A stretch of DNA of 64,000 bases from Eledone cirrhosa (lineage: Eukaryota), in assembly GCA_964016885.1 (NCBI GenBank), contig OZ024755.1, forward strand, positions 21,018,001-21,082,000. Reading direction: 5' to 3'. Numbering within the stretch: the stretch's first letter is position 1; the number at the start of each line of letters is the position of its first letter. Below the pieces are notes generated by a model that was not told the DNA's origin, did no database searches, and was given only the letters and a program-made list of their open reading frames with translations. Positions 8,086-55,513 of the stretch are shown here, one piece after another. A program made the translations under genes and the position numbers.

Positions 8086-8087
<2 letters not shown>

Positions 8088-8494
8088 AGATAAATCTACC
8101 AAAATATAAGGTAGTGTCCAATCCGTATGAAGAACTCAATGTAATCCAAATATCATGAAAAGAGAAGAAGCATTCAAAAATTTTCGATAAAAATCATAGG
8201 AAAACAGAGTCAAGATAAATTAATAAAAACAACGAAATAAAAACAAAGAACAAGTTCCTTATATTAAAAAATTCATCATTTTACGATCGTTTCTGGGATG
8301 TATATGTGTGTTGGTATATATATCATTTCTGAGGACGGCATGTATATGTGAAGGTATGTATATTTCCTCTGATAATTTGTAATATTTTTACATAGATCTA
8401 TATGATACACACACATACATCCCAGAAACGATCGCAAAATGAATTTTTTAATATAAGGAACTTGTTCTTTGTTTTTATTTCATTGTTTTTATTA

Positions 8495-8500
<6 letters not shown>
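8086..8500 (-). mobile_element. Penelope-like/retrozyme-like terminus, family B, with inverted duplication
   Basis: Inverted arms 8215-8310 and ~8410-8500, HHR core on plus, 3' tail 8086-8215 on minus, (TA)n on both sides. Confidence 0.7.
8323..8442 (+). ncRNA. Long-stem-II hammerhead (family B), probably inactive copy
   Basis: tcattt CTGAGGA ... GAAACGATCG-C-A aaatga. The conserved U16.1 is C in this copy. Confidence 0.65.
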
Positions 8501-8561
<61 letters not shown>

Positions 8562-8562
<1 letters not shown>

Positions 8563-8698
8563 GTTATTCCGGGTTGAATCGGAGGTAACCACAGTAAGTA
8601 AGGTACTCAATACATAGCAGAGTATAACAGTTTTAATATAGATGAGATTCTACAGGACTAGAACTGTTTCATTCATTAGAAATCATCAGGAATCTCAT
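8562..8698 (-). mobile_element. Family A element: HHR plus 3' tail between (TA)n tracts
   Basis: Reverse complement of 35526-35660, flanked by TA repeats. Confidence 0.75.
8642..8698 (-). ncRNA. Type I hammerhead ribozyme (family A)
   Basis: Minus strand: atgagattc CTGATGA t-ttc-taat-gaa-t GAA ACAG ttctagtc CTGT-A gaatctcat. Perfect 9-bp stem I, 4-bp stem III, GUA triplet. Confidence 0.85.
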
Positions 8699-8860
8699 AT
8701 ATATATATATTCATTCCACTTTGAAAGTTCATTGTAACTACATATCTAAGTAGTTGGATGCGAATTAATTTTGATAAAAATAATGAAATAATCAAAAATT
8801 AGCGGTCCAAGACTTTGGATTATGGTGTTTTTTTATATTTTTCTAATTTTTTAGTAATTT

Positions 8861-9097: not shown

Positions 9098-9250
9098 TGG
9101 AAGATTCGAAACCTTGACGGCTGAGCTCCTGCCATTTCAACAGCTGTTGAAACAGCAGGGGCTCAGCCGTCGGGATCCCGAATCTTCCATATTACCCCAA
9201 GTATCGAGTACTCTGATGAATAATGGTCTAACTGGTTTTTACTACATCCA
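9098..9250 (+). mobile_element. Family C-related fold-back palindrome (9098-9189) plus 3' tail
   Basis: tggaagattcg...ttcaacag|ctgttgaa...cgaatcttcca. Contains a GAAAC...GTC 3' half-hammerhead and a gtatcgagtac tail motif. Confidence 0.65.
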
Positions 9251-9284
9251 TTGCAAGCAGGGAAAAGCGGACGTAAAATGATGA

Positions 9285-9338
<54 letters not shown>

Positions 9339-9341
<3 letters not shown>

Positions 9342-9530
9342 GATAAATCTACCAAGAGTTTACGGTAGTGTCCAATCCGTATGAAGAACTCAATGTAATC
9401 CGGATATCATGGAAAGAAGAGATGCAATGAAAAATCACTTTCGGTGAAAGATAAACGGAATACAGAGTCAAGATAAAATATTTAAAAAATAATGAATAAA
9501 ACAATGAAACAGTTCCTTATATTAAACAAA
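9339..9530 (-). mobile_element. Diverged family B 3' tail
   Basis: gtagataaatctacc...ggtagtgtccaatccgtatgaagaactcaatgtaatcc matches 8086-8260 and abuts (TA)n. Confidence 0.75.
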
Positions 9531-10407: not shown

Positions 10408-10590
10408 TATTGGTAGTATCGGTAGAGGGTCGGACGCCATGCTTTCCAGCATAGTTACGTCCCTTTACGATCTGAGTTCAAATCCCGCTGAGGTTGACTT
10501 TGCCTTTCATCCTTACGGGGTCGATAAAATAAAGTACCAGTAATGCACTGGGTAATTGCTGGCCTTGTGCCTAAAGTAGAAACAATTATT
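10408..10590 (+). mobile_element. tRNA-derived SINE family A
   Basis: A-box-like tggtagtatcgg, B-box gagttcaaatccc and conserved body. Many further copies, e.g. 4240-4420, 10905-11015, 12130-12310, 28245-28632, 50455-51030, 52605-52800. Confidence 0.85.
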
Positions 10591-16359: not shown

Positions 16360-16935
16360 ATATAATGTTGTATGGTAGTGAGACATGGGTGATGAATGTA
16401 GAGGATATAGAAAGGCTGGCGAGAAATGCTTCATTGGATGGATAATGTCAGTGAACCTGAATGAACGAAGTGGTATGGATAATCTGAGAAAAAAAAAAGC
16501 TGGGCATAAAAAGAATCAGATGTGTGCAAAAAAGAGAAAATTGCATCCTGAGCCTGAATGAATAAAGTGGCTTTCAGTATGCCTAGATCATGTAAAGAGG
16601 TGAAATTAGATCATCATCATGCTAGGATGGGTTGGACAGGTCATTTATCATTTTATCGTAGTACCAACGATGACACTTTACAGGATATACTGAGTGCATT
16701 AGATCATCATCATCATTTTAGGTCCGCTTTTCCCTGCTTGTAAGGTGGGACGAGTCCTCTTCAGCACAGCATCCCTCCATTTGTCATGGTCCTTCGTCAT
16801 CTCCTCTGTGAGTTTCAGCAATCTGAGGTCAGCTCTCACCACCTTCACCCATGTTTTTCATGGTCTTCCTCTACTGTGTCTTCCTTCCACTGGGATTACT
16901 TAGCACTTCTACACCCAGCGGTCATCTTCCATGTG
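16360..16935. mobile_element. Degenerate RTE fragments (plus 16360-16560; minus 16705-16935)
   Basis: LYGSETW..NVEDIERL motif on plus, and a diverged copy of the RTE 3' end on minus. Confidence 0.7.
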
Positions 16936-17704
16936 CATCAGACTGCGTTGGTATGGCCATGTGATGCATTAGATGTTTATAGTAAAACTACACAGAAAGT
17001 TGACATTACTAAAATCATGTTTTTTATCTATATAATAACTTTATATACAAACTTTTTAAAACTAATTATATTAGAGAAATAATAGATGGTTTTTTTTTTT
17101 ATGAATTATTAATTTAATTACTTATTCTGAAATATAGTATTAGAGAAATCAAGTTGTCTCTTTAGATATTCATCTCATCATCATCATCACCATCAGTGTT
17201 TTTAGGACCATTTTTCCATGCTTGCATGGTTTGGACAGGTCTTCTTCACACAGCATGTATCCATTTGCTGTGTTCCTTTGTTCATTTATTACCAACGTTT
17301 TAATTTTTGACCCTATGTATACAAAGATAGTTTTAGAATATAAAGACCATTCTGGTTCCAAATATATATATTTTTATATAGCTACAACATACAGGAAAAA
17401 TGTGATGGGAATTTGAAAAATGCAAGGTCAATGTTTGACCTCAAAATGACCTCACTGATAATTTTTCAACAGTTGGCTAAAAACACGGTAATAATGTTTT
17501 TTGCCTAAAATCTACCCTCATGTCAAATTTCAGCAAAATTGAAGTGATGAGTGCCAGTGATGAATAATGTGAAGAGAAATGGAATGAGATGGTTGGGTCA
17601 TGTGTTGATGAAAGTGATTAGGTGATGGGAATAGAACCAGTAATGAATGTTGTGAAGAGAGATGGAATGAGATGGTTGGGTGATGTGGTGAGGATGGATG
17701 GAAG

Positions 17705-23258: not shown

Positions 23259-23335
23259 GAAACCATCCTAACACCCACATAAGATACACCCCACATGAGG
23301 TGGGGTGTATCTTATGTGGGTGTTAGGATGGTTTC
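23259..23335. repeat. Perfect 36-bp inverted repeat with 5-nt loop
   Basis: gaaaccatcctaacacccacataagatacaccccac atgag gtggggtgtatcttatgtgggtgttaggatggtttc. Confidence 0.95.
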
Positions 23336-23905
23336 CTAGCTAGCAAGGTTGGCTGGGTCATCAGCAGACCAGGTTGGTACTTGAGTGCTGGTAGTGACCC
23401 CATAGATTGGCTGGGAGCCTACATCGCGCTTACATATGATCCCATTACCAAATGTAACGGGGAGGTTGTAATGTCTTTGACACAGCTAACCCTTATATAT
23501 CACACACTAACAGTTGTTTTAACATGTACTTTCCCTGCTAGATCCCTCACAACAGCACAGCCCATCCTACCCCTGCTAGTGTGGAAAATGGATGTTAAAC
23601 GATGATGATGGTATATTTATATATATATACATATATATATAAAAATACTTTTGAAAGTGACCTTGAAAACTTGTGTTCCTAGATGTATCCAAAGATAATA
23701 TATATACGCACACATATATACGCACACATATATATATACACACATGGATGATATATTCAATACGATTCAATAATACTTTCATTCAAAAACTGTTCTATTT
23801 ATGCAAATTACTACGCCATTCGTTGTTAGACGTTTGCATGCTAAGAAAATAAGAATGAAAATTATGGGAAGGGATATATATGTTTATATATAAACATTCA
23901 TATAC

Positions 23906-24183: not shown

Positions 24184-24282
<99 letters not shown>

Positions 24283-24646
24283 ATATATAATATATAAGAT
24301 CAAAAGATGGTTAAAAGAGTTCCATGTATATATATATATATATATAATATATATATATAAGATCAAAAGATGGTTAAAAGAGTTCCATGTATATATATAT
24401 ATCATAATCTATAATATATATATAAACACACAGTCCACGGTGTAATGTGGCCGTGTAGGTAACACGGTAAAAACCTCCCAGTCCACACTGTAAACATGGT
24501 TGGTGTTAGGAAGGGCATCCAGCCGTAGAAAATCTGCCAGACAGTCCTGAGCAAGACAACCAATCTTGCCTCAAGTGGGACAATTCCCGTCCAGACCCAT
24601 GCTAGCATGGAAAATGGACGTTAAACGATGATGATGATGATGATTA

Positions 24647-24978: not shown

Positions 24979-25161
24979 ACGAAGGAAATGTGGTAAGGAA
25001 CCAGGTGGACCATAACGCACCAAAGTACTCAATACTTAGGGTAGTAGAGTGGGTAATAGGAACAAGTAAGACCCCGACGGCTGAGCTCAAGCCGTTTCGA
25101 CGGCTAATTCAGAATTAGCCATCGAAACGGCTTGAGCTCAGCCGTCGGGGTCTTACTTCTT

Positions 25162-25166
<5 letters not shown>
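24978..25166 (-). mobile_element. Family C element: fold-back palindrome (25056-25166) plus 3' tail, flanked by (TA)n
   Basis: 55-bp arms centred on 25111. Each arm has GAA-ACGGCT-loop-AGCCGT-C, the 3' half of a hammerhead. Tail motif attgagtac on minus. Confidence 0.75.
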
Positions 25167-28975: not shown

Positions 28976-29431
28976 AATGGTGTGACACACCTATTTGTAT
29001 ATCTGTATGAAACAAGGCTAACACCCAAGGTATTCACCAGGTGTAATTCCGAACTACCAACAAGACTCCATACATACAGTCTACCTGACCGTTCACTTCA
29101 GTTCTTATTTATAAGCTTTTCACCTAGTCCACTTTTAGTTATGCGGGAGTGTTCAAAAGTTTCCACACTGATTTTCCTTTTCAGGTGAAACCTGATTATC
29201 ATTAATGTCGTTATTTTTTTCTTGGATTTTTGTCATTTATCTTATTTATTTTTAGTTTGCTTTTCTTAATTTTTATTTGAAAAACAAAGAAATATTTAAT
29301 TATATTTACTTTTAAATTCCTTTATTTCAGATTATTTGTAGTTAGTTTTCTTTGTAGACTTTCGGGTAAGAAATTGGTTTAGTTTTGTTCATCATAGTTA
29401 TGTTGTTTACTATTTACCTATATTATTAGTA

Positions 29432-29828
29432 GTGAAGGGCGGTGGATTGGCAGTATCGGTAGAGGGTCAGACACCATGCTTTCCAGCATAGTTACATCCC
29501 TTTACAGTCGGAGTTCAAATCCCGCCAAGGTTAACTTTGCCTTTCATCTTTACGAAGTCGATAAAATAAAGTACCAGTAATGTACTGGGTAATTACTGGC
29601 CTCGTGCCAAGAGTAGAAACAATTATTAGTAGTGAAGGGCAGTGGATTGGCAGTATTGGTAGAGCATCAGACACCATGCTTTTCAGCATAGAGTTATGGT
29701 CCTTTACGTTCTGAATTCAAATCCTGCCGAGGTTAACTTTGCTTTTCATCCTTACAGGGTCAATAAAATAAAGTACCAGTAATGCACTGGGGTAATTGCT
29801 GGCTTTGTGCCAAAAGTAGAAACAATTA
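29432..29828 (+). mobile_element. Two full-length SINE A copies in head-to-tail tandem
   Basis: Both start agtagtgaagggc.gtggattggcagtat.ggtagag and end agtagaaacaattatt. A SINE B head follows at ~29835. Confidence 0.88.
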
Positions 29829-30304
29829 TTAGAAGTGGAAGCACGTGGCTTTGTGGTTAGAATATTCAGCTCACAATCATAAGTTAGACAAACACATGCA
29901 TACAAATAATATATGATACAAACCCATGCAAGCGTGGAAGATGGACATTAAACGATGATGATGATGATGATATTCATTATATACCTGTGTATATACAAAA
30001 GTATACACACAAGCACACACACACATACATACATACACTCACATTCACACACATACTCACTCCAAAACACTCACACACACACACACACACATTCACTCAC
30101 ACACATACAAACGCATTCTCACACACTCTCATACACATGCACACACACATTCATTCACACACTCACACATTCACACACTCACACACATACACTCACCCCA
30201 AAACACTGACACACACACACATTCACTCACACATTCATACACTCACATTCATTCACACACTCACACACATATATCAATGGTGTCTCTACGACTCCACCAG
30301 GAGT

Positions 30305-31645: not shown

Positions 31646-32300
31646 CATCATCATCATCATCATCATCATTTTACGTCCGCTTTTCCCTGCTTGCAAGGGT
31701 GGGACGGGTCTTATTCAGCACAGGATCTCTCCACTCGTCACGGTCCCTCGTCATCTCCACCGTGAGCTTCAATGATCTGAGGTCTGTTCTCACCACCTCC
31801 GCCCATGTTTTTCGTGGTCTACCTCTACCACGTCTTCCTTCAACTGGCATTTCCTGGCACTTCTTCACCCATCGGTCATCCTCCATGCGCATCACATGTC
31901 CATACCACCTCAGTCTCCTCTCCCGTACACTACATTCTATCCCTCTCAGACACAGTTTCTCTCTCAACACATTTATGCTGGGTCGTTCACGCACATTTAC
32001 ACTGCACATCCAACGGAGCATGCTTGCCTCATTTCTCTCCAGCCGTCGCATATCTTCTGCGGTAGCTGCCCATGTCTCACTACCATGCAGCATCGCGCTC
32101 CTCACACAGGCATCATACAACCGGCCTTTCGTACGCAGGGAGAAACCCTTCTTCGTCAACAGAGGAAGCAGCTCCCTAAACTTCTTCCAACCCGTCCTTA
32201 TTCTAGATACTATGGCCTCGGAACACCCTCCTCCCATGCTAATCTGATCTCCTAGGTACCGGAAGCTATCCACCACTTCTATAGCGCCCTCTCGCATTTG
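31646..32300 (-). mobile_element. Young 5'-truncated RTE-clade LINE with open ORF C-terminus
   Basis: ORF IEVVDSFRYLG...AMLHGSETW...RLRWYGHVMRM...GRRGRGRPRKTW is uninterrupted. (GAT)n tail, inserted in (TA)n. Confidence 0.93.
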
Positions 32301-33462
32301 AAAAATGTGTCTATCATATATATATAATGTGTCTATCATATATATATATATATATATATTGGTAAACGGAATAGAAAATGCTGACAAATTGTTCACAGTT
32401 GAAAAATGGTTTAATTAGGAATAAAAGAGTATTAGTGATTGTATGGGTTAGTATTCAGTTGTGGTTTTAAGTTTTTAAGTTTTTACCGGTTGCGCATTTC
32501 TAAATGCTTTTCAAAAATAATTTTGAGATAGAGTGTCCGTGCTGTTTGCTCTGATCTGATTAGTTTTGGGAATTCTACCTGTTTTTATGTTAAAAAAGTG
32601 GCTCCAGCGTTACTTTGGTGTTGCAAAATTTCTTGTGGTCAAAACAATTTTGATTGGTCGGTAGAGGTCATGTGAGTGTAAAAAATTGATTTTGCGCCAA
32701 GTCTTTTTATGTTAAAAATATATATATATATATATATATATACAAATTTTAGTACAGCATTAACGAAGCTTTTGGCTGCGGCTAAGCTAATGAATGCAGA
32801 TTCGAAATGCAGCTTAGCACTCAATGGAGAATAATGCCCCAGAGTTATAACAATACATTTAGACAGCTTTGCAAATCAAATATAGCGACCGACAGTCCAG
32901 CCGCTTTGCCATAGCAACGAAAAAAACTGAACTCAGGAAAAGATTTTGACTGACCTGGACCATCACGTGGACATAGAATGCAACACATAACGCATAACAT
33001 ATAGCATACAATATACATCACATATAACATACAACATCCACGCTAGGTTTCTGTAAATCCGACTAATTCCGCTTACGGGGGTCTGCAAGTTAATGGCCTT
33101 TGACGACAGAACAAAGGATTTACTTCGTCAACAAGTCTTGCGTTCTATAGCCTCGACGGGTGTGTTTTCTAGCATTAATTTTCGCTATAGACACATGGTT
33201 TTCCCAAAGGGAGCTAACCCCCGTTTTAGCGGTCAATTCGAAATTTGGGACAAAGGAATGAAATTCCCTTTGACAAACCGAATTATACGTCTTCTTAGTC
33301 TTAAGTTCTTCTACCTCATCCCCTGATGGCTTATATATTCATCTACTACTACCAACTTAAGGATCTATACTGCTCTTCCCTATTCTTAGTATTGGTCAAC
33401 CTCAACCTGGTTATACAACATTACTTATTCATATGTATGTTTTTTTGTATTCTTCAATAAAC

Positions 33463-33611
33463 AAAACTCATTATTTCTGAAGATGGTGGGTAGTGAAGAC
33501 ATATGTATTTTTTCTTACTATGATAATTTGTAATATATTTTACATAGATCAATAATTGAATGGGCATTCGGAGAGCTACCCCTCAGAAACGATCGTAAAA
33601 TAATGAGTTTT
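33463..33611 (+). ncRNA. Long-stem-II type I hammerhead (family B variant)
   Basis: aaaactcattattt CTGAAGA tggtgggtag...ctacccctca GAA ACGATCGT-A aaataatgagtttt. Perfect 14-bp stem I, palindromic stem III, GUA cleavage after 33597. Confidence 0.85.
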
Positions 33612-33652
33612 ACTATGAATTAACCGTTTTTTGTTTAATTTCATTGTTTTAA

Positions 33653-33691
<39 letters not shown>

Positions 33692-33693
<2 letters not shown>

Positions 33694-33830
33694 CTTCAAC
33701 AGGACTAGAATTGTTTCATTCAAATGAAACAATTCTAGTCCTGTAGAAGTTATTGCTATACTCTACCAATATATTGAGTACCTTTCTCAACTGTGGTTAC
33801 CTGCCAACACAACTCGGGAATCTATACATT
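33692..33830 (+). mobile_element. Family A variant: short fold-back (33692-33751) plus 3' tail
   Basis: acaggactagaattgtttcatt|ca|aatgaaacaattctagtcctgt, then attgagtacc...tgtggttacc. CTGATGA is absent. Confidence 0.75.
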
Positions 33831-33982
33831 AATATATATATATATATATATATATAATGTAGGAGGTGAGTTTTATTGTAGTACAATAAAGCAATGCAGA
33901 TATCGGATAAGAAGCACTCTACAGTTTGTGGGACTGGAGTATGCATAATATAAGATCAAAAGATGGTTAAAGGAGTTCCATA

Positions 33983-34053
33983 TATTTTATTATGCGCATT
34001 TCAAAAACAAACATCATCAAGCAATAATATTTGTGTTTTCATCAGATAAAACA
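33983..34053 (-). ncRNA. Type I hammerhead (family D), minus-strand copy
   Basis: Reverse complement of 34175-34245. Confidence 0.8.
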
Positions 34054-34174
34054 GGAGAACATGATATGAAGGCTAAAAAAACACTTGTTGATCGTGCAGT
34101 TTTAAATCAACATATGTTGATTTAAAACTGCACTATCAACAAGTGTTTTTTTTAGCCTTCATATCATGTTCTCC

Positions 34175-34245
34175 TGTTTTATCTGATGAAAACACAAATA
34201 TTATTGCTTGATGATGTTTGTTTTTGAAATGCGCATAATAAAATA
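34175..34245 (+). ncRNA. Type I hammerhead (family D)
   Basis: tgttttat CTGATGA aaacacaaatattatt..gatgatgtttgttttt GAA ATGCGCAT-A ataaaata. Stem I 8 bp, AU/GU-rich stem II, palindromic stem III, AUA triplet. Confidence 0.8.
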
Positions 34246-34275
34246 TATGGAACTTCTTTAACCATCTTTTGATCT

Positions 34276-34331
<56 letters not shown>

Positions 34332-34383
34332 TAATAAAAACAATGAAATAGACACAAAGAACAAGTTCCTTATATTAAAAAAT

Positions 34384-34511
34384 TCATCATTTTACGATCG
34401 TTTCAGGGATGTATATGTGGGTTGGTATGTATATCATATGTAAAAATATTACAAATTATCAGAGGAAATATGCATACCTTCACATAAACATGCCGTCCTC
34501 AGAAATGATGA
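34384..34511 (-). ncRNA. Long-stem-II hammerhead (family B)
   Basis: Minus strand: tcatcattt CTGAGGA cggcatg...catccct GAA ACGATCGT-A aaatgatga. Stem I is 9 bp. Confidence 0.8.
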
Positions 34512-34585
34512 GATGTGTTTATTGAAAAAAACAAAGAATTAATATAAAGGGTCTGTTTGGGAACAGGTTTTGAATTGACCATATC

Positions 34586-35465: not shown

Positions 35466-35468
<3 letters not shown>

Positions 35469-35658
35469 TTTTAATATAGATGAGATTCTACAGGACTAGA
35501 ACTGTTTCATTCTTTAGAAATCATCAGATTCCTGATGATTTCTAAAGAATGAAACAGTTCTAGTCCTGTAGAATCTCATCTATATTAAAACTTTTATACT
35601 CTGCTATGTATTGAGTACCTTACTTACTGTGGTTACCTCCGATTCAACCCGGAATAAC

Positions 35659-35660
<2 letters not shown>
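35466..35660 (+). mobile_element. Family A element with 62-bp-arm fold-back (35466-35593) plus tail
   Basis: Arms separated by attc (35528-35531). Tail attgagtacc...ccggaataacgt-(AT)n. Confidence 0.85.
35526..35576 (+). ncRNA. Type I hammerhead (family A)
   Basis: agattc CTGATGA tttctaaagaat GAA ACAG ttctagtc CTGT-A gaatct. Confidence 0.85.
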
Positions 35661-35692
<32 letters not shown>

Positions 35693-35730: not shown

Positions 35731-35774
<44 letters not shown>

Positions 35775-35880
35775 AAAAAGTATGACCCCGACGGCAGAGC
35801 TCAAGCCGTTTCGACGGCTATTTCTGGACTAATAAAAACAATGAAATAAACACAAAGAACAAGTTCCTTATATTAAAAAA

Positions 35881-49919: not shown

Positions 49920-50300
49920 TGAAAGCTGTTTGATGGGCCCAAATGGCAGAGGTGCGATGTAGTAACAAAGCCACAATTAGGTCTTTGGAGGGCCATGATG
50001 AGCGCATTGTACTCGATCTCAAACAGATGTGTGTGGTTTTTCAGCAGCACTTCACTCAGATGTTCAGGAGCAATGATGGGCTGAATCAGAGGTTCAACTT
50101 CAGTGCCTACTTTGACAGCTTTCTGCAGCTCTTGGCAAGGAAGGTGGATTATTGTGAAAAGCTGATAACTGATGAAATATGACACAAGGGACAAAATCAC
50201 TTGGTTTAGATGGTCTATCCTACAAGCTTTACATAAACATACCAGACTTGTTTGGTGACATCTTAGCGGTCATCTACAGCAACTGACAGCAGAACCGGAG
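49920..50300 (+). mobile_element. Degenerate L1/Tx1-clade LINE ORF2 fragment (tether to start of RT)
   Basis: F.QHF..MF...CEKLITDEI followed by KSLGLDGLSYKLY..IPDLFGDILAVIY, the KSPG.DG motif. Stops and frameshift present. Confidence 0.75.
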
Positions 50301-51294
50301 ATTAACTTTGCCATTTGTCCTTCCATGGTCAATAAAATAAAGTGGTAGTCAAGCACTGGAGTTGATTTAGTTGACTTTCCTCTCTTCCAAAATATTTGGT
50401 CTTGTGTCAAATGTAGAAACAATTATCATTATTATTACTAATGGCCCTTTCCATTCTGAGTTCAAATCCCACCGAGGTTAACTTTGCCTTTCATCCTTAC
50501 GGGGTCGATAAAATAAAGTACCAGTAATGCACTGGTAATTGCTGGTCTTGTGCCAAAAGTAGAAACAATTATTATTATTACTAAGGGTGGTGGCTTGGCA
50601 GTACCAGTAGAGCATTGGAAAACATGCTTTACAACATATAGTTACAACCATTCACATCCTGAATTTAAATCTCACCAAGGTTAGCTTTGCCTTTCATCCT
50701 TACATGGTCAATAAAATAAACTACCAGTAACTGGAGTCGATTTAGTCAACTTTCCCACCCACCAAATTGTTGGCCTTGTGCCTAAATCAGAAACCATTAT
50801 TACTAAGGGCAGCAGGGTTGGCAGAATCATTAGAATGTGAGAATTAAATGTTTTGCAGGATTTCGTTAGAATATTTTACATTCTGAGTTCAAATCCTGCT
50901 GAGGTTAGCTTTGCCTTTCATCCGTACGAGATTGATAAAATAAACTACTACTAACTCACTAGGGTCAACCTAATCGACTTTCCTCTTCTTTTCAAATTCC
51001 TGGCCTTGTGCCAAATGTAGCAACAGTTACTACTATTAATGTGTTTGTTATATTATCTTCCTGTTTATGTTAGTGTGTTTTAGTGCCTCCTTCTTCTTCT
51101 TCGCCTCCTTCTTCTTTTTCCCCTTCTTTTTCTTCTTCTCCATACAATACCACACCAGATTGTTATAATTAATCATGGACATTGGCTATATTCCCAAAGT
51201 TTACACAATAATTAATTATACATGTTTCAGTGTTTCTCTATGTGTAGAGTAAATTTAACTGGACTAATACTTGGCTCAAAAGTGAAAAAGTTCA

Positions 51295-55167: not shown

Positions 55168-55513
55168 AAGGAACATGGCTTAGTGGTTAGAGCATTGGCC
55201 TTGCAATCGAAAGGTTGTGAGTTCAATTCTTGGACCGGGTGATGTGTTGTTTCCTTGAGCAAGATACTTTATTTCACATTGCTCCTGTTTACTCAGCTGT
55301 AGAAATGAGATGATAGGGACTGGGGTCCATATCATTCCACTGCAAAGTGGTCGTGGAGGTGCCACGGCAAAAAAGCACCCAGCACTCACTGTAAACGAGG
55401 TTGGTGTTAGGAAGGGCATCCAGCTGTAGAAATCAAGCCAAAATCAGTTCCCGTCCCACCCTTGCAAGCAGGGGAAAGCGGACGTAAAATGATGATGATG
55501 ATGATGATGATGA
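55168..55513 (+). mobile_element. Composite SINE with exchanged RTE 3' tail
   Basis: Same body as 51721 up to atcagttcc, then ccgtcccacccttgcaagcagggg...gtaaaatgatg, matching the tail of the RTE at 31646. Confidence 0.8.

Follow-up and report, generated by a model that had tools for sequence, protein, structure and literature searches.

The one-sided tails of hammerhead-bearing, (TA)n-targeting ends of Penelope-like elements (PLEs) carry a bulged helix with the consensus RCUC-stem-loop-stem-U(U/A/C)-GAGY-RCY. That such a conserved helix exists is, in our assessment, nearly certain, and it is a real covarying RNA element, apparently not described before, of Hydra, a transposon clade already known. 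The elements bearing it in the analyzed stretch of Eledone cirrhosa DNA (64,000 nucleotides; hereafter the window) are probably 5'-truncated ends of Hydra-type Penelope-like retrotransposons, in which the helix would position internal starts of the reverse transcriptase (RT) from downstream. The one-sided tail and inverted ends of PLEs have long been known and have remained unexplained, and the RNA signal recognized by the telomerase-related PLE RT has so far been undefined. A covarying helix of 20-30 nt, kept across distant marine animals and fixed a few bases behind both proposed start sites, is directly testable, and offers a genomic marker by which Hydra elements can be located and delimited.

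Searches of openly readable papers, most of them on PLEs or retrozymes, did not turn up this helix; paywalled articles, figure images, and the annotations of Dfam and Repbase may bear on its novelty. The available main text of the paper defining the Hydra clade (PMC8557442) describes no tail structure ('bulge' has 0 occurrences), and the available supplement text of a biochemical study of a Poseidon element (PMC11167929) mentions neither 'tail' nor 'stem loop'.

Tailed and inverted element ends in the window

The window consists of AT-rich (34.6% GC), microsatellite-rich animal DNA. Each tailed family within it combines a type I hammerhead, or its 3' half, with two TA-flanked ends, except family E, in which no canonical hammerhead was found. 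Full hammerhead cores occur in families A, B and D, and 3' halves cut by inversion in C, A2 and C2. The palindromes at 35467-35592, 33693-33750, 25059-25163, 33953-34275, 8251-8464 and 9098-9189 each have the tail on one arm; the inverted arm uses an early end, and the conserved motif described below lies between the early and late ends. These ends are 17 and 97 nt from the hammerhead cut in C, 43 and 134 nt in D, and about 62 and 200 nt in B. Tails in the window families measure 67-140 nt, and all tailed copies except C2 terminate in TA or CA/TA tracts.

In family A, the inverted 5'-truncated arm (35467-35528, minus strand) lacks the helix and ends at the early TA junction, 22 nt past the cut. 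The plus strand then carries a type I hammerhead (35526-35576; CUGAUGA..GAAAC, stem III ACAG/CUGU, predicted cut after 35570), whose fold is also the minimum-energy fold of the 8642-8698 copy; the early end site at which other copies join (TA)n (35592-35593), marked by TA loose ends in reads and by the inverted arm; the bulged helix (35598-35616; ACUC-UGC / GUA-UU-GAGU, bulge at 35611-35612); the conserved RCY with a tentative, weakly indicated short stem ACC/GGU (35617-35633); a family-specific terminal hairpin UCCG/CGGA, seen by inspection (35638-35653); and the late end, 89 nt after the cut, with its (TA)n target tract (35659-35690).

A second family A copy with hammerhead and tail lies at 8562-8700 (minus; helix 8623 to 8605), and subfamily A2 is an inverted pair with tail at 33693-33831 (plus; helix 33760-33779, two inner pairs). 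Family C (24979-25163, minus; helix 25050 to 25027) is an inverted pair with tail and the 3' half of a hammerhead. Family B comprises an inverted pair with a long tail (8086-8497, minus; helix 8210 to 8134) and a second tailed copy (9339-9530, minus; helix 9468 to 9388), and family D an inverted pair with tail (33857-34280, minus; helix 33940 to 33916, bulge UA). The new family E (32743-33283, minus) has its helix at 32845 to 32819, 80 nt from (TA)n. The C-like inverted pair C2 (9098-9250, plus) has the 3' strand of the motif (9203-9212, bulge UC) and is missing the 5' strand. Two family B copies (33441-33658, plus; 34329-34545, minus) and one family C copy (35773-35826, minus) have no tail and end at the early junction. 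Within element E, a possible degenerate hammerhead was noted at 33040-33130 (minus), with UUGACGA, an 8-bp stem and GAAAC; its cleavage triplet is not clear.

Reads from four runs were placed on family A over 35527-35670 only; the two deepest runs contributed 11355 contigs and 6920 reads. In the raw-read run, TA loose ends fell at 35592 (418 reads) and 35657 (485 reads), which for family A bears out an earlier expectation that copies end at fixed positions; opposite-strand joints were also present. Read depth peaked over the ribozyme core and at ~35607-35636 and dipped in the linker, as expected if diverged subfamilies keep both blocks. Among the 40 listed of 109 variants, none lies within 35598-35601 or 35609-35622.

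The type I hammerhead in the terminal repeat on the sense strand and the inverted 5'-truncated copy with a one-sided tail are traits of PLE (EN+) elements, and insertion into (TA)n is a trait of the Hydra clade; all of these were found. A search of the window for the Hydra ORF found none (best tblastn E 0.076), as expected of truncated copies, and clade membership of the window families rests on RNA features, no ORF being present. The Hydra clade as described by Craig et al. 2021 (PMC8557442) likewise inserts into (TA)n, has a type I hammerhead close to the 3' end, and shows an inverted truncated copy whose tail is one-sided; its clade-specific protein features are a CxCX5C linker, RWK and no CCHH, and its tails are given as 30-40 nt, versus 67-140 nt here. 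The Naiad clade was rejected, since canonical hammerhead cores are present in the window whereas Naiad lacks a canonical hammerhead. The tail helix common to Hydra-clade ends is a trait found here and not a published criterion.

Non-LTR retrozymes and PLE minimal hammerheads (PMC7229834, PMC4209133, bioRxiv 10.64898/2026.07.22.740005) are likewise non-coding, hammerhead-bearing and PLE-related. Retrozymes form tandem arrays of 150-400 nt, whereas the window copies are dispersed inverted pairs in TA tracts, and no tandem hammerhead units were found in the window. A possible likeness to retrozymes is seen in family A reads, in which a head-to-tail joint from 35595 to 35527, with ~9 fixed letters between, defines a tail-less unit of ~78 nt (81 raw reads, 4 contigs); it might have arisen when the template switched to the early start, or might represent a very small retrozyme-like repeat. 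The sequence leading into stem I at this joint ends in a pyrimidine run plus CAG, like a 3' splice site.

Several further repeats were noted in the window. Another hammerhead family with a palindromic stem III (1041-1114, plus) ends in (TA)n 31 nt past the cut, and no tail was seen there. Short tandem fragments of the inverted family D early end, with TA after each, occupy 24281-24424. A near-perfect 77-bp palindrome without hammerhead (23259-23335) is followed by a GAGTGCT look-alike at 23380, which was set aside for having no partner strand. A LINE-like RT frame fragment ending in (ATG)n/(TA)n, which we take to be RTE-like, lies at 31671-32414 (minus), with tails at 1135-1264, 9248-9286, 16705-16940 and 55450-55488 and several short 3' copies. 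A dispersed high-copy SINE-like repeat has at least 15 window copies, among them 122-224, 10409-10585, 29421-29830 and 50298-51038.

Pairing and covariation of the helix

An initial annotation of this DNA had proposed that otherwise dissimilar hammerhead families share a linear motif about 50 nt from their ends, followed by a terminal hairpin of variable sequence, as a cis element for the RT. The motif positions were correct to within 1-2 nt (A at 35610 (+) and 8611 (-); A2 at 33773 (+); C at 25033 (-); B at 9394 (-) and 8140 (-); D at 33922 (-)), and the distance to (TA)n is indeed 50 nt in both A copies, 59 in A2, 55 in C, 56 (9394) and 63 (8140) in B, and 66 in D. The pattern T[TAC]GAGT[AGT]C[CT] was found 40-95 nt upstream of TA in 9 of 110 non-simple TA-tract flanks in the window, comprising the seven sites already annotated plus the new C2 at 9203 (+) and the new E at 32825 (-). 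The family bodies are unalike, as stated (among 10 pairs compared, A-A2 alone was significant), but the likeness of the A and B tails as plain sequence was not significant (p 0.23 and 0.56); the tail likeness gains its significance from a pairing partner that the annotation had missed.

The motif is the 3' strand of a bulged helix, half of the feature. GAGU pairs across a 2-nt bulge with ACUC, which lies a few bases past the early end, and an inner stem then continues. The inner stems differ by family, being UGC/GUA in A, UACU/AGUA in C, UGU/ACA around 61 nt in B, CAGU/ACUG in D and UGGGG/CUCCA in E, and loop lengths span 3-63 nt. In 16/16 instances the first base of the bulge is U. The proposal of a conserved cis element tied to the RT at TA repeats held in substance, RT recognition being putative; the element itself is this base-paired helix and not a linear motif with a terminal hairpin.

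A strict descriptor derived from families A-D matched the window eight times, against 0.15 expected in block shuffles (maximum 2 in 60 shuffles); the matches are seven tails plus 43147, which has no TA nearby. Family E had been picked up by the linear motif before the pairing partner was recognized. With the motif fixed and the upstream sequence shuffled, an exact partner arises by chance with p 0.002-0.016 per family across five families, and a shared geometry, any of 16, at about 1e-5 for all five and 0.002-0.024 for trios of families treated as independent. In 13 aligned cores, 65/65 cells were paired, a value reached in 0/500 shuffles of a test that is inflated by related sequences. In the same 13 sequences, AU and GC replace one another at the outer pair, as do UA and CG at the pair adjoining the bulge; no variation occurs at the three central pairs, which are therefore uninformative about pairing. 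A model built on these cores gave 98/99 paired cells in 20 distinct matches, training sequences included. By group, the outer stem is ACUC/GAGU in the window families and GCUC/GAGC in the coral-type, clam and sea-cucumber ones. The tails of A, A2, B and E include the helix in their minimum-energy fold; in A, C and D it is weakly predicted (pair probability only 0.2-0.3). Rfam gave nothing at gathering score in the window, only palindrome look-alikes below it, and left the window hammerheads unscored; a covariance model of three family A copies recovered its training sequences alone and not the other families.

Comparison with shuffles does not support a general terminal hairpin, as the segments after the motif fold no better (mean z -0.31, n=15; 3/15 below -1). 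Terminal hairpins are present by inspection in A-E, and A2 lacks the tccg/cgga stem. Reads contain the two changes of a possible U-A to C-G swap in the family A hairpin, each counted separately (35638 T>C in 1412/2626 reads, 35653 A>G in 501/1476). A partner for the TGG half, the ACC/GGU stem, was present in 11/15 segments versus 7.2 expected, a weak excess that does not support a general second stem. The linear motif with TGG and (TA)6, used as a search pattern, returned 115 loci in three collections; none of them had the helix or an upstream hammerhead, and they were taken as chance matches.

Likeness of this kind might also reflect shared ancestry or chance without function, or a tRNA D-arm leftover, which GCUC..UA-GAGC-RC resembles. 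The A and C tails do align as plain sequence (p 0.002), and tRNA-like D-arm stretches fit the loose pattern. Compensatory changes combined with freely varying loops, in hosts from three or more phyla, speak against this explanation, and a D-arm origin is further opposed by the inner stem in place of a D-loop, by the missing T-arm after it, and by ARAGORN (0 tRNAs) and Rfam (nothing at gathering score). We regard it as very improbable and largely refuted. A tRNA-derived SINE, which would have a tRNA head with A and B boxes, was rejected on the same ARAGORN and Rfam results.

Helices in Hydra elements outside the window

In supplementary file S7 of PMC8557442, the helix is clear by eye in 3/6 Hydra consensi. 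Hydra-2_Amil (coral) and Hydra-2_Ajap (sea cucumber) each have it at the 3' end, and Hydra-1_Ajap has two copies at its 5' start; the outer pair is changed to G-C in all of these. Hydra-1_Amil and Hydra-1_Crog show only a partial match, and the Hydra-1_Obim consensus stops before the tail and has at most a loose look-alike. Six 8-mers gave 27 matches in this supplement, 4 of them helix sites of Hydra consensi. Among the remaining 23, one has a full partner by eye, in a Naiad 3' UTR (by file order Naiad_Mmer, preceding Naiad_Obim); it closely follows the predicted SECIS region, with several hundred bases left before the end, and may be a chance match. No helix was seen by eye in the last ~240 nt of two octopus Naiad consensi.

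A hammerhead-free pattern, run on viral and prokaryote collections, matched 184 loci, with 11 full-helix matches. A hammerhead lay upstream in three of these by descriptor and in one (L211) by eye, one base off, and all four hammerhead-associated matches came from a single bin, G001, which holds animal DNA. This 12-Mb bin is filed as a bacterium and contains much animal DNA with many PLE families (L211, L212, L261, L265, L300-L433); one of its hammerheads is identical to that of the coral Hydra-2_Amil. One locus (L212) is closely preceded by the terminal part of a GIY-YIG ORF, which includes a CxCX5C linker. Helix-bearing relatives carry the RT plus GIY-YIG ORF (Pfam GIY-YIG E 3e-4, just under the cut-off), and those in G001 show CxCX5C and an MRW[KR]A motif, which by eye places them in the Hydra clade as published. 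Pfam gave no match for a 144-aa piece.

The L212 protein pulled 22 distinct Hydra endonuclease ends from G001 and from a clam-symbiont record (L331). Eight of these are early ends, located either 28-48 nt past the cut or at the first microsatellite, and lack the helix. Nine end late, and all nine have it, with an inner stem of at least three pairs in seven, two pairs in L341 and a bulge in L343; two of the nine (L333, L304) were already known from the motif scan. The other five are uninformative, being truncated or lacking the ribozyme or the end. The clam-symbiont record (L331, 503-1853) is on a 2.1-kb contig of a gill-symbiont assembly, has two tail-to-tail Hydra-type ends and is likely host DNA. 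Together, these helices come from hosts of three or more phyla, and no DNA likeness was found between the window families and the G001 or L331 loci.

Behind hammerhead copies of other types, the helix was found in 0/15, each with 136-200 nt readable downstream, and retrozyme-type hammerheads in G001 lack it. Within 200 nt of six Hydra-type hammerhead copies, at least two of which are cut by inversions, there is no TA end and no helix. No late end of the C-like hammerhead family was found in G001, and no relatives of the Hydra protein in the viral contigs. A long tandem array with a period of about 200-245 nt (G001:C102, 3884-35743) contains a short hairpin that fits the loose pattern.

Junctions, paired helix copies and proposed internal starts

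In window families A, A2, B, C and D and in four families of G001, the gap between early junction and helix is mostly 5-11 nt (3 nt and 12 nt at individual junctions), while the distance from the cut to this junction ranges from 17 to over 60 nt. The fixed spacing of the motif is to this junction, instead of to an end ~50 nt downstream as first thought. For the late junction, L399 is informative, being a whole element between TA tracts that reads helix copy 1, spacer, copy 2, ATG, frameshifted ORF, 3' UTR, hammerhead and tail. Copy 1 is identical to the 3' tail of this element, and the site of the late end is an internal TATA that precedes copy 2 by 8 nt. The sequence at which the L317/L211 family ends late is continued in L410, where a second helix follows 5-7 nt farther on. 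Intact elements have two helix copies in the 5' UTR, ahead of the ORF, and each TA junction is a few bases 5' of one helix copy, usually at a short internal TA run; for the second copy, this rule comes from two elements of one bin (G001) and from one published consensus that has two copies but no late end. The initial annotation had the elements stop at the TA tract, and the autonomous relatives contradict this by running past the late TA junction into the second helix and the ORF, so that the tail is the start of a 5' UTR and not a true 3' terminus.

The same relatives bear on the suggestion that the tail is a coding-sequence remnant at an ORF start, as in Penelope/Poseidon tails. The tail does overlap the ORF in anole and rotifer PLEs (PMC11167929, PMC3846280). 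In L399, however, the helices lie upstream of the ATG, the A and A2 spacings differ by single bases, and family A reads contain 1- and 4-nt indels, which makes this explanation exceedingly improbable.

By the early and late offsets, each junction immediately precedes a helix that a start at this point would leave uncopied. From this placement, the helix most likely positions internal starts, with two copies explaining the tail; judged from sequence, we consider this role in positioning the RT probable. The RT-endonuclease of the element would bind the helix, and a nicked (TA)n end, placed on the TA-rich patch 5-11 nt upstream, would serve as primer for an internal start of cDNA synthesis there. 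A start before helix 1 would give a short, tail-less end, and a start before helix 2 would copy helix 1 and give a tailed end. A head-to-head pair with a one-sided tail would result from combining the two, for example through a dimer of the protein, and the tail would then be the spacing between the two helices. Stringent LINE and SINE 3' stem-loops and hepatitis B epsilon are also small bulged RNA stems recognized in cis by an RT, and they lie inside the copied region or template the primer. In contrast, the helix here would sit downstream of the start and stay out of the resulting copy, suggesting how sequence beyond the copied region might define a template boundary.

A precedent for such starts is PAc, a Poseidon element of Anolis, for which two internal RT starts flank the tail in vitro, RNA well downstream of the first start is needed, a dimer is predicted and the target is AT-rich (Frangieh et al. 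2024, PMC11167929). The PAc starts differ in lying inside the ORF at an AC-rich stem-loop, and PAc is not (TA)n-specific and has no conserved binding structure defined in that account. The helix may be the Hydra equivalent of the PAc requirement for downstream RNA.

The position of the copies in intact 5' UTRs, shortly before the ORF in L399 and L410, would also suit 5' UTR elements for translation, stability or autoregulation of the uncapped, hammerhead-cut RNA, next to which ends adjoin through unstructured AU-rich patches by TA microhomology. Most junctions do show 1-8 nt of TA microhomology. Some have only 0-1 nt, however, and both junctions keep a similar short offset despite unalike families, loops of 3 to 63 nt and cut-to-junction distances of 17 to over 60 nt; we therefore think this account rather unlikely. 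Less likely still is that the structure acts as DNA, as a cDNA hairpin or cruciform recognized by the GIY-YIG endonuclease during resolution of the intermediate. The tail of Drosophila Penelope is reported to be needed for endonuclease recognition of plasmid DNA (PMC11167929), the tail has been ascribed to endonuclease resolution (PMC8557442), and the covariation also fits single-stranded DNA. Against this, the hammerhead strand contains G-U pairs in families A and E and in one from G001, a modest sign of RNA, and the junction-marking copy lies outside the inserted DNA.

How an RT positioned by the helix might read it is suggested by the bulge. The arginine-sandwich secondary-structure definition (PMC6189040), a bulge pyrimidine after a Watson-Crick purine and then G-C and A-U pairs, is matched in 16/16 instances. 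HIV TAR and 7SK (PMC6189040, PMC6140463) have the same local secondary structure, with a purine pair, a U-led bulge, and G-C and A-U pairs, and HIV-2 TAR has 2-nt UU bulges. The likeness is at the level of secondary structure and implies no homology, the bulge here being on the 3' strand of the hairpin; in addition, some copies have A as the second bulge base, and the same substitution eliminates ASM1 and ASM2 in 7SK (PMC6189040, PMC6140463). As a tentative and somewhat doubtful extension, Hydra-clade RTs may read a TAR/7SK-like arginine-sandwich bulge through an R/K-rich patch, with two tandem helices loading two enzymes and acting as rulers that, from downstream, fix the two internal starts. 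If true, such reading would explain the one-sided tail and inverted pairs of PLEs and give a portable cis signal for (TA)n-directed insertion; it is a lead rather than a result. Basic patches also serve as nuclear localization signals. In the frames of Hydra type, an R/K-rich patch of 5-10 R/K per 16 residues lies behind the RT domain in 7/8.
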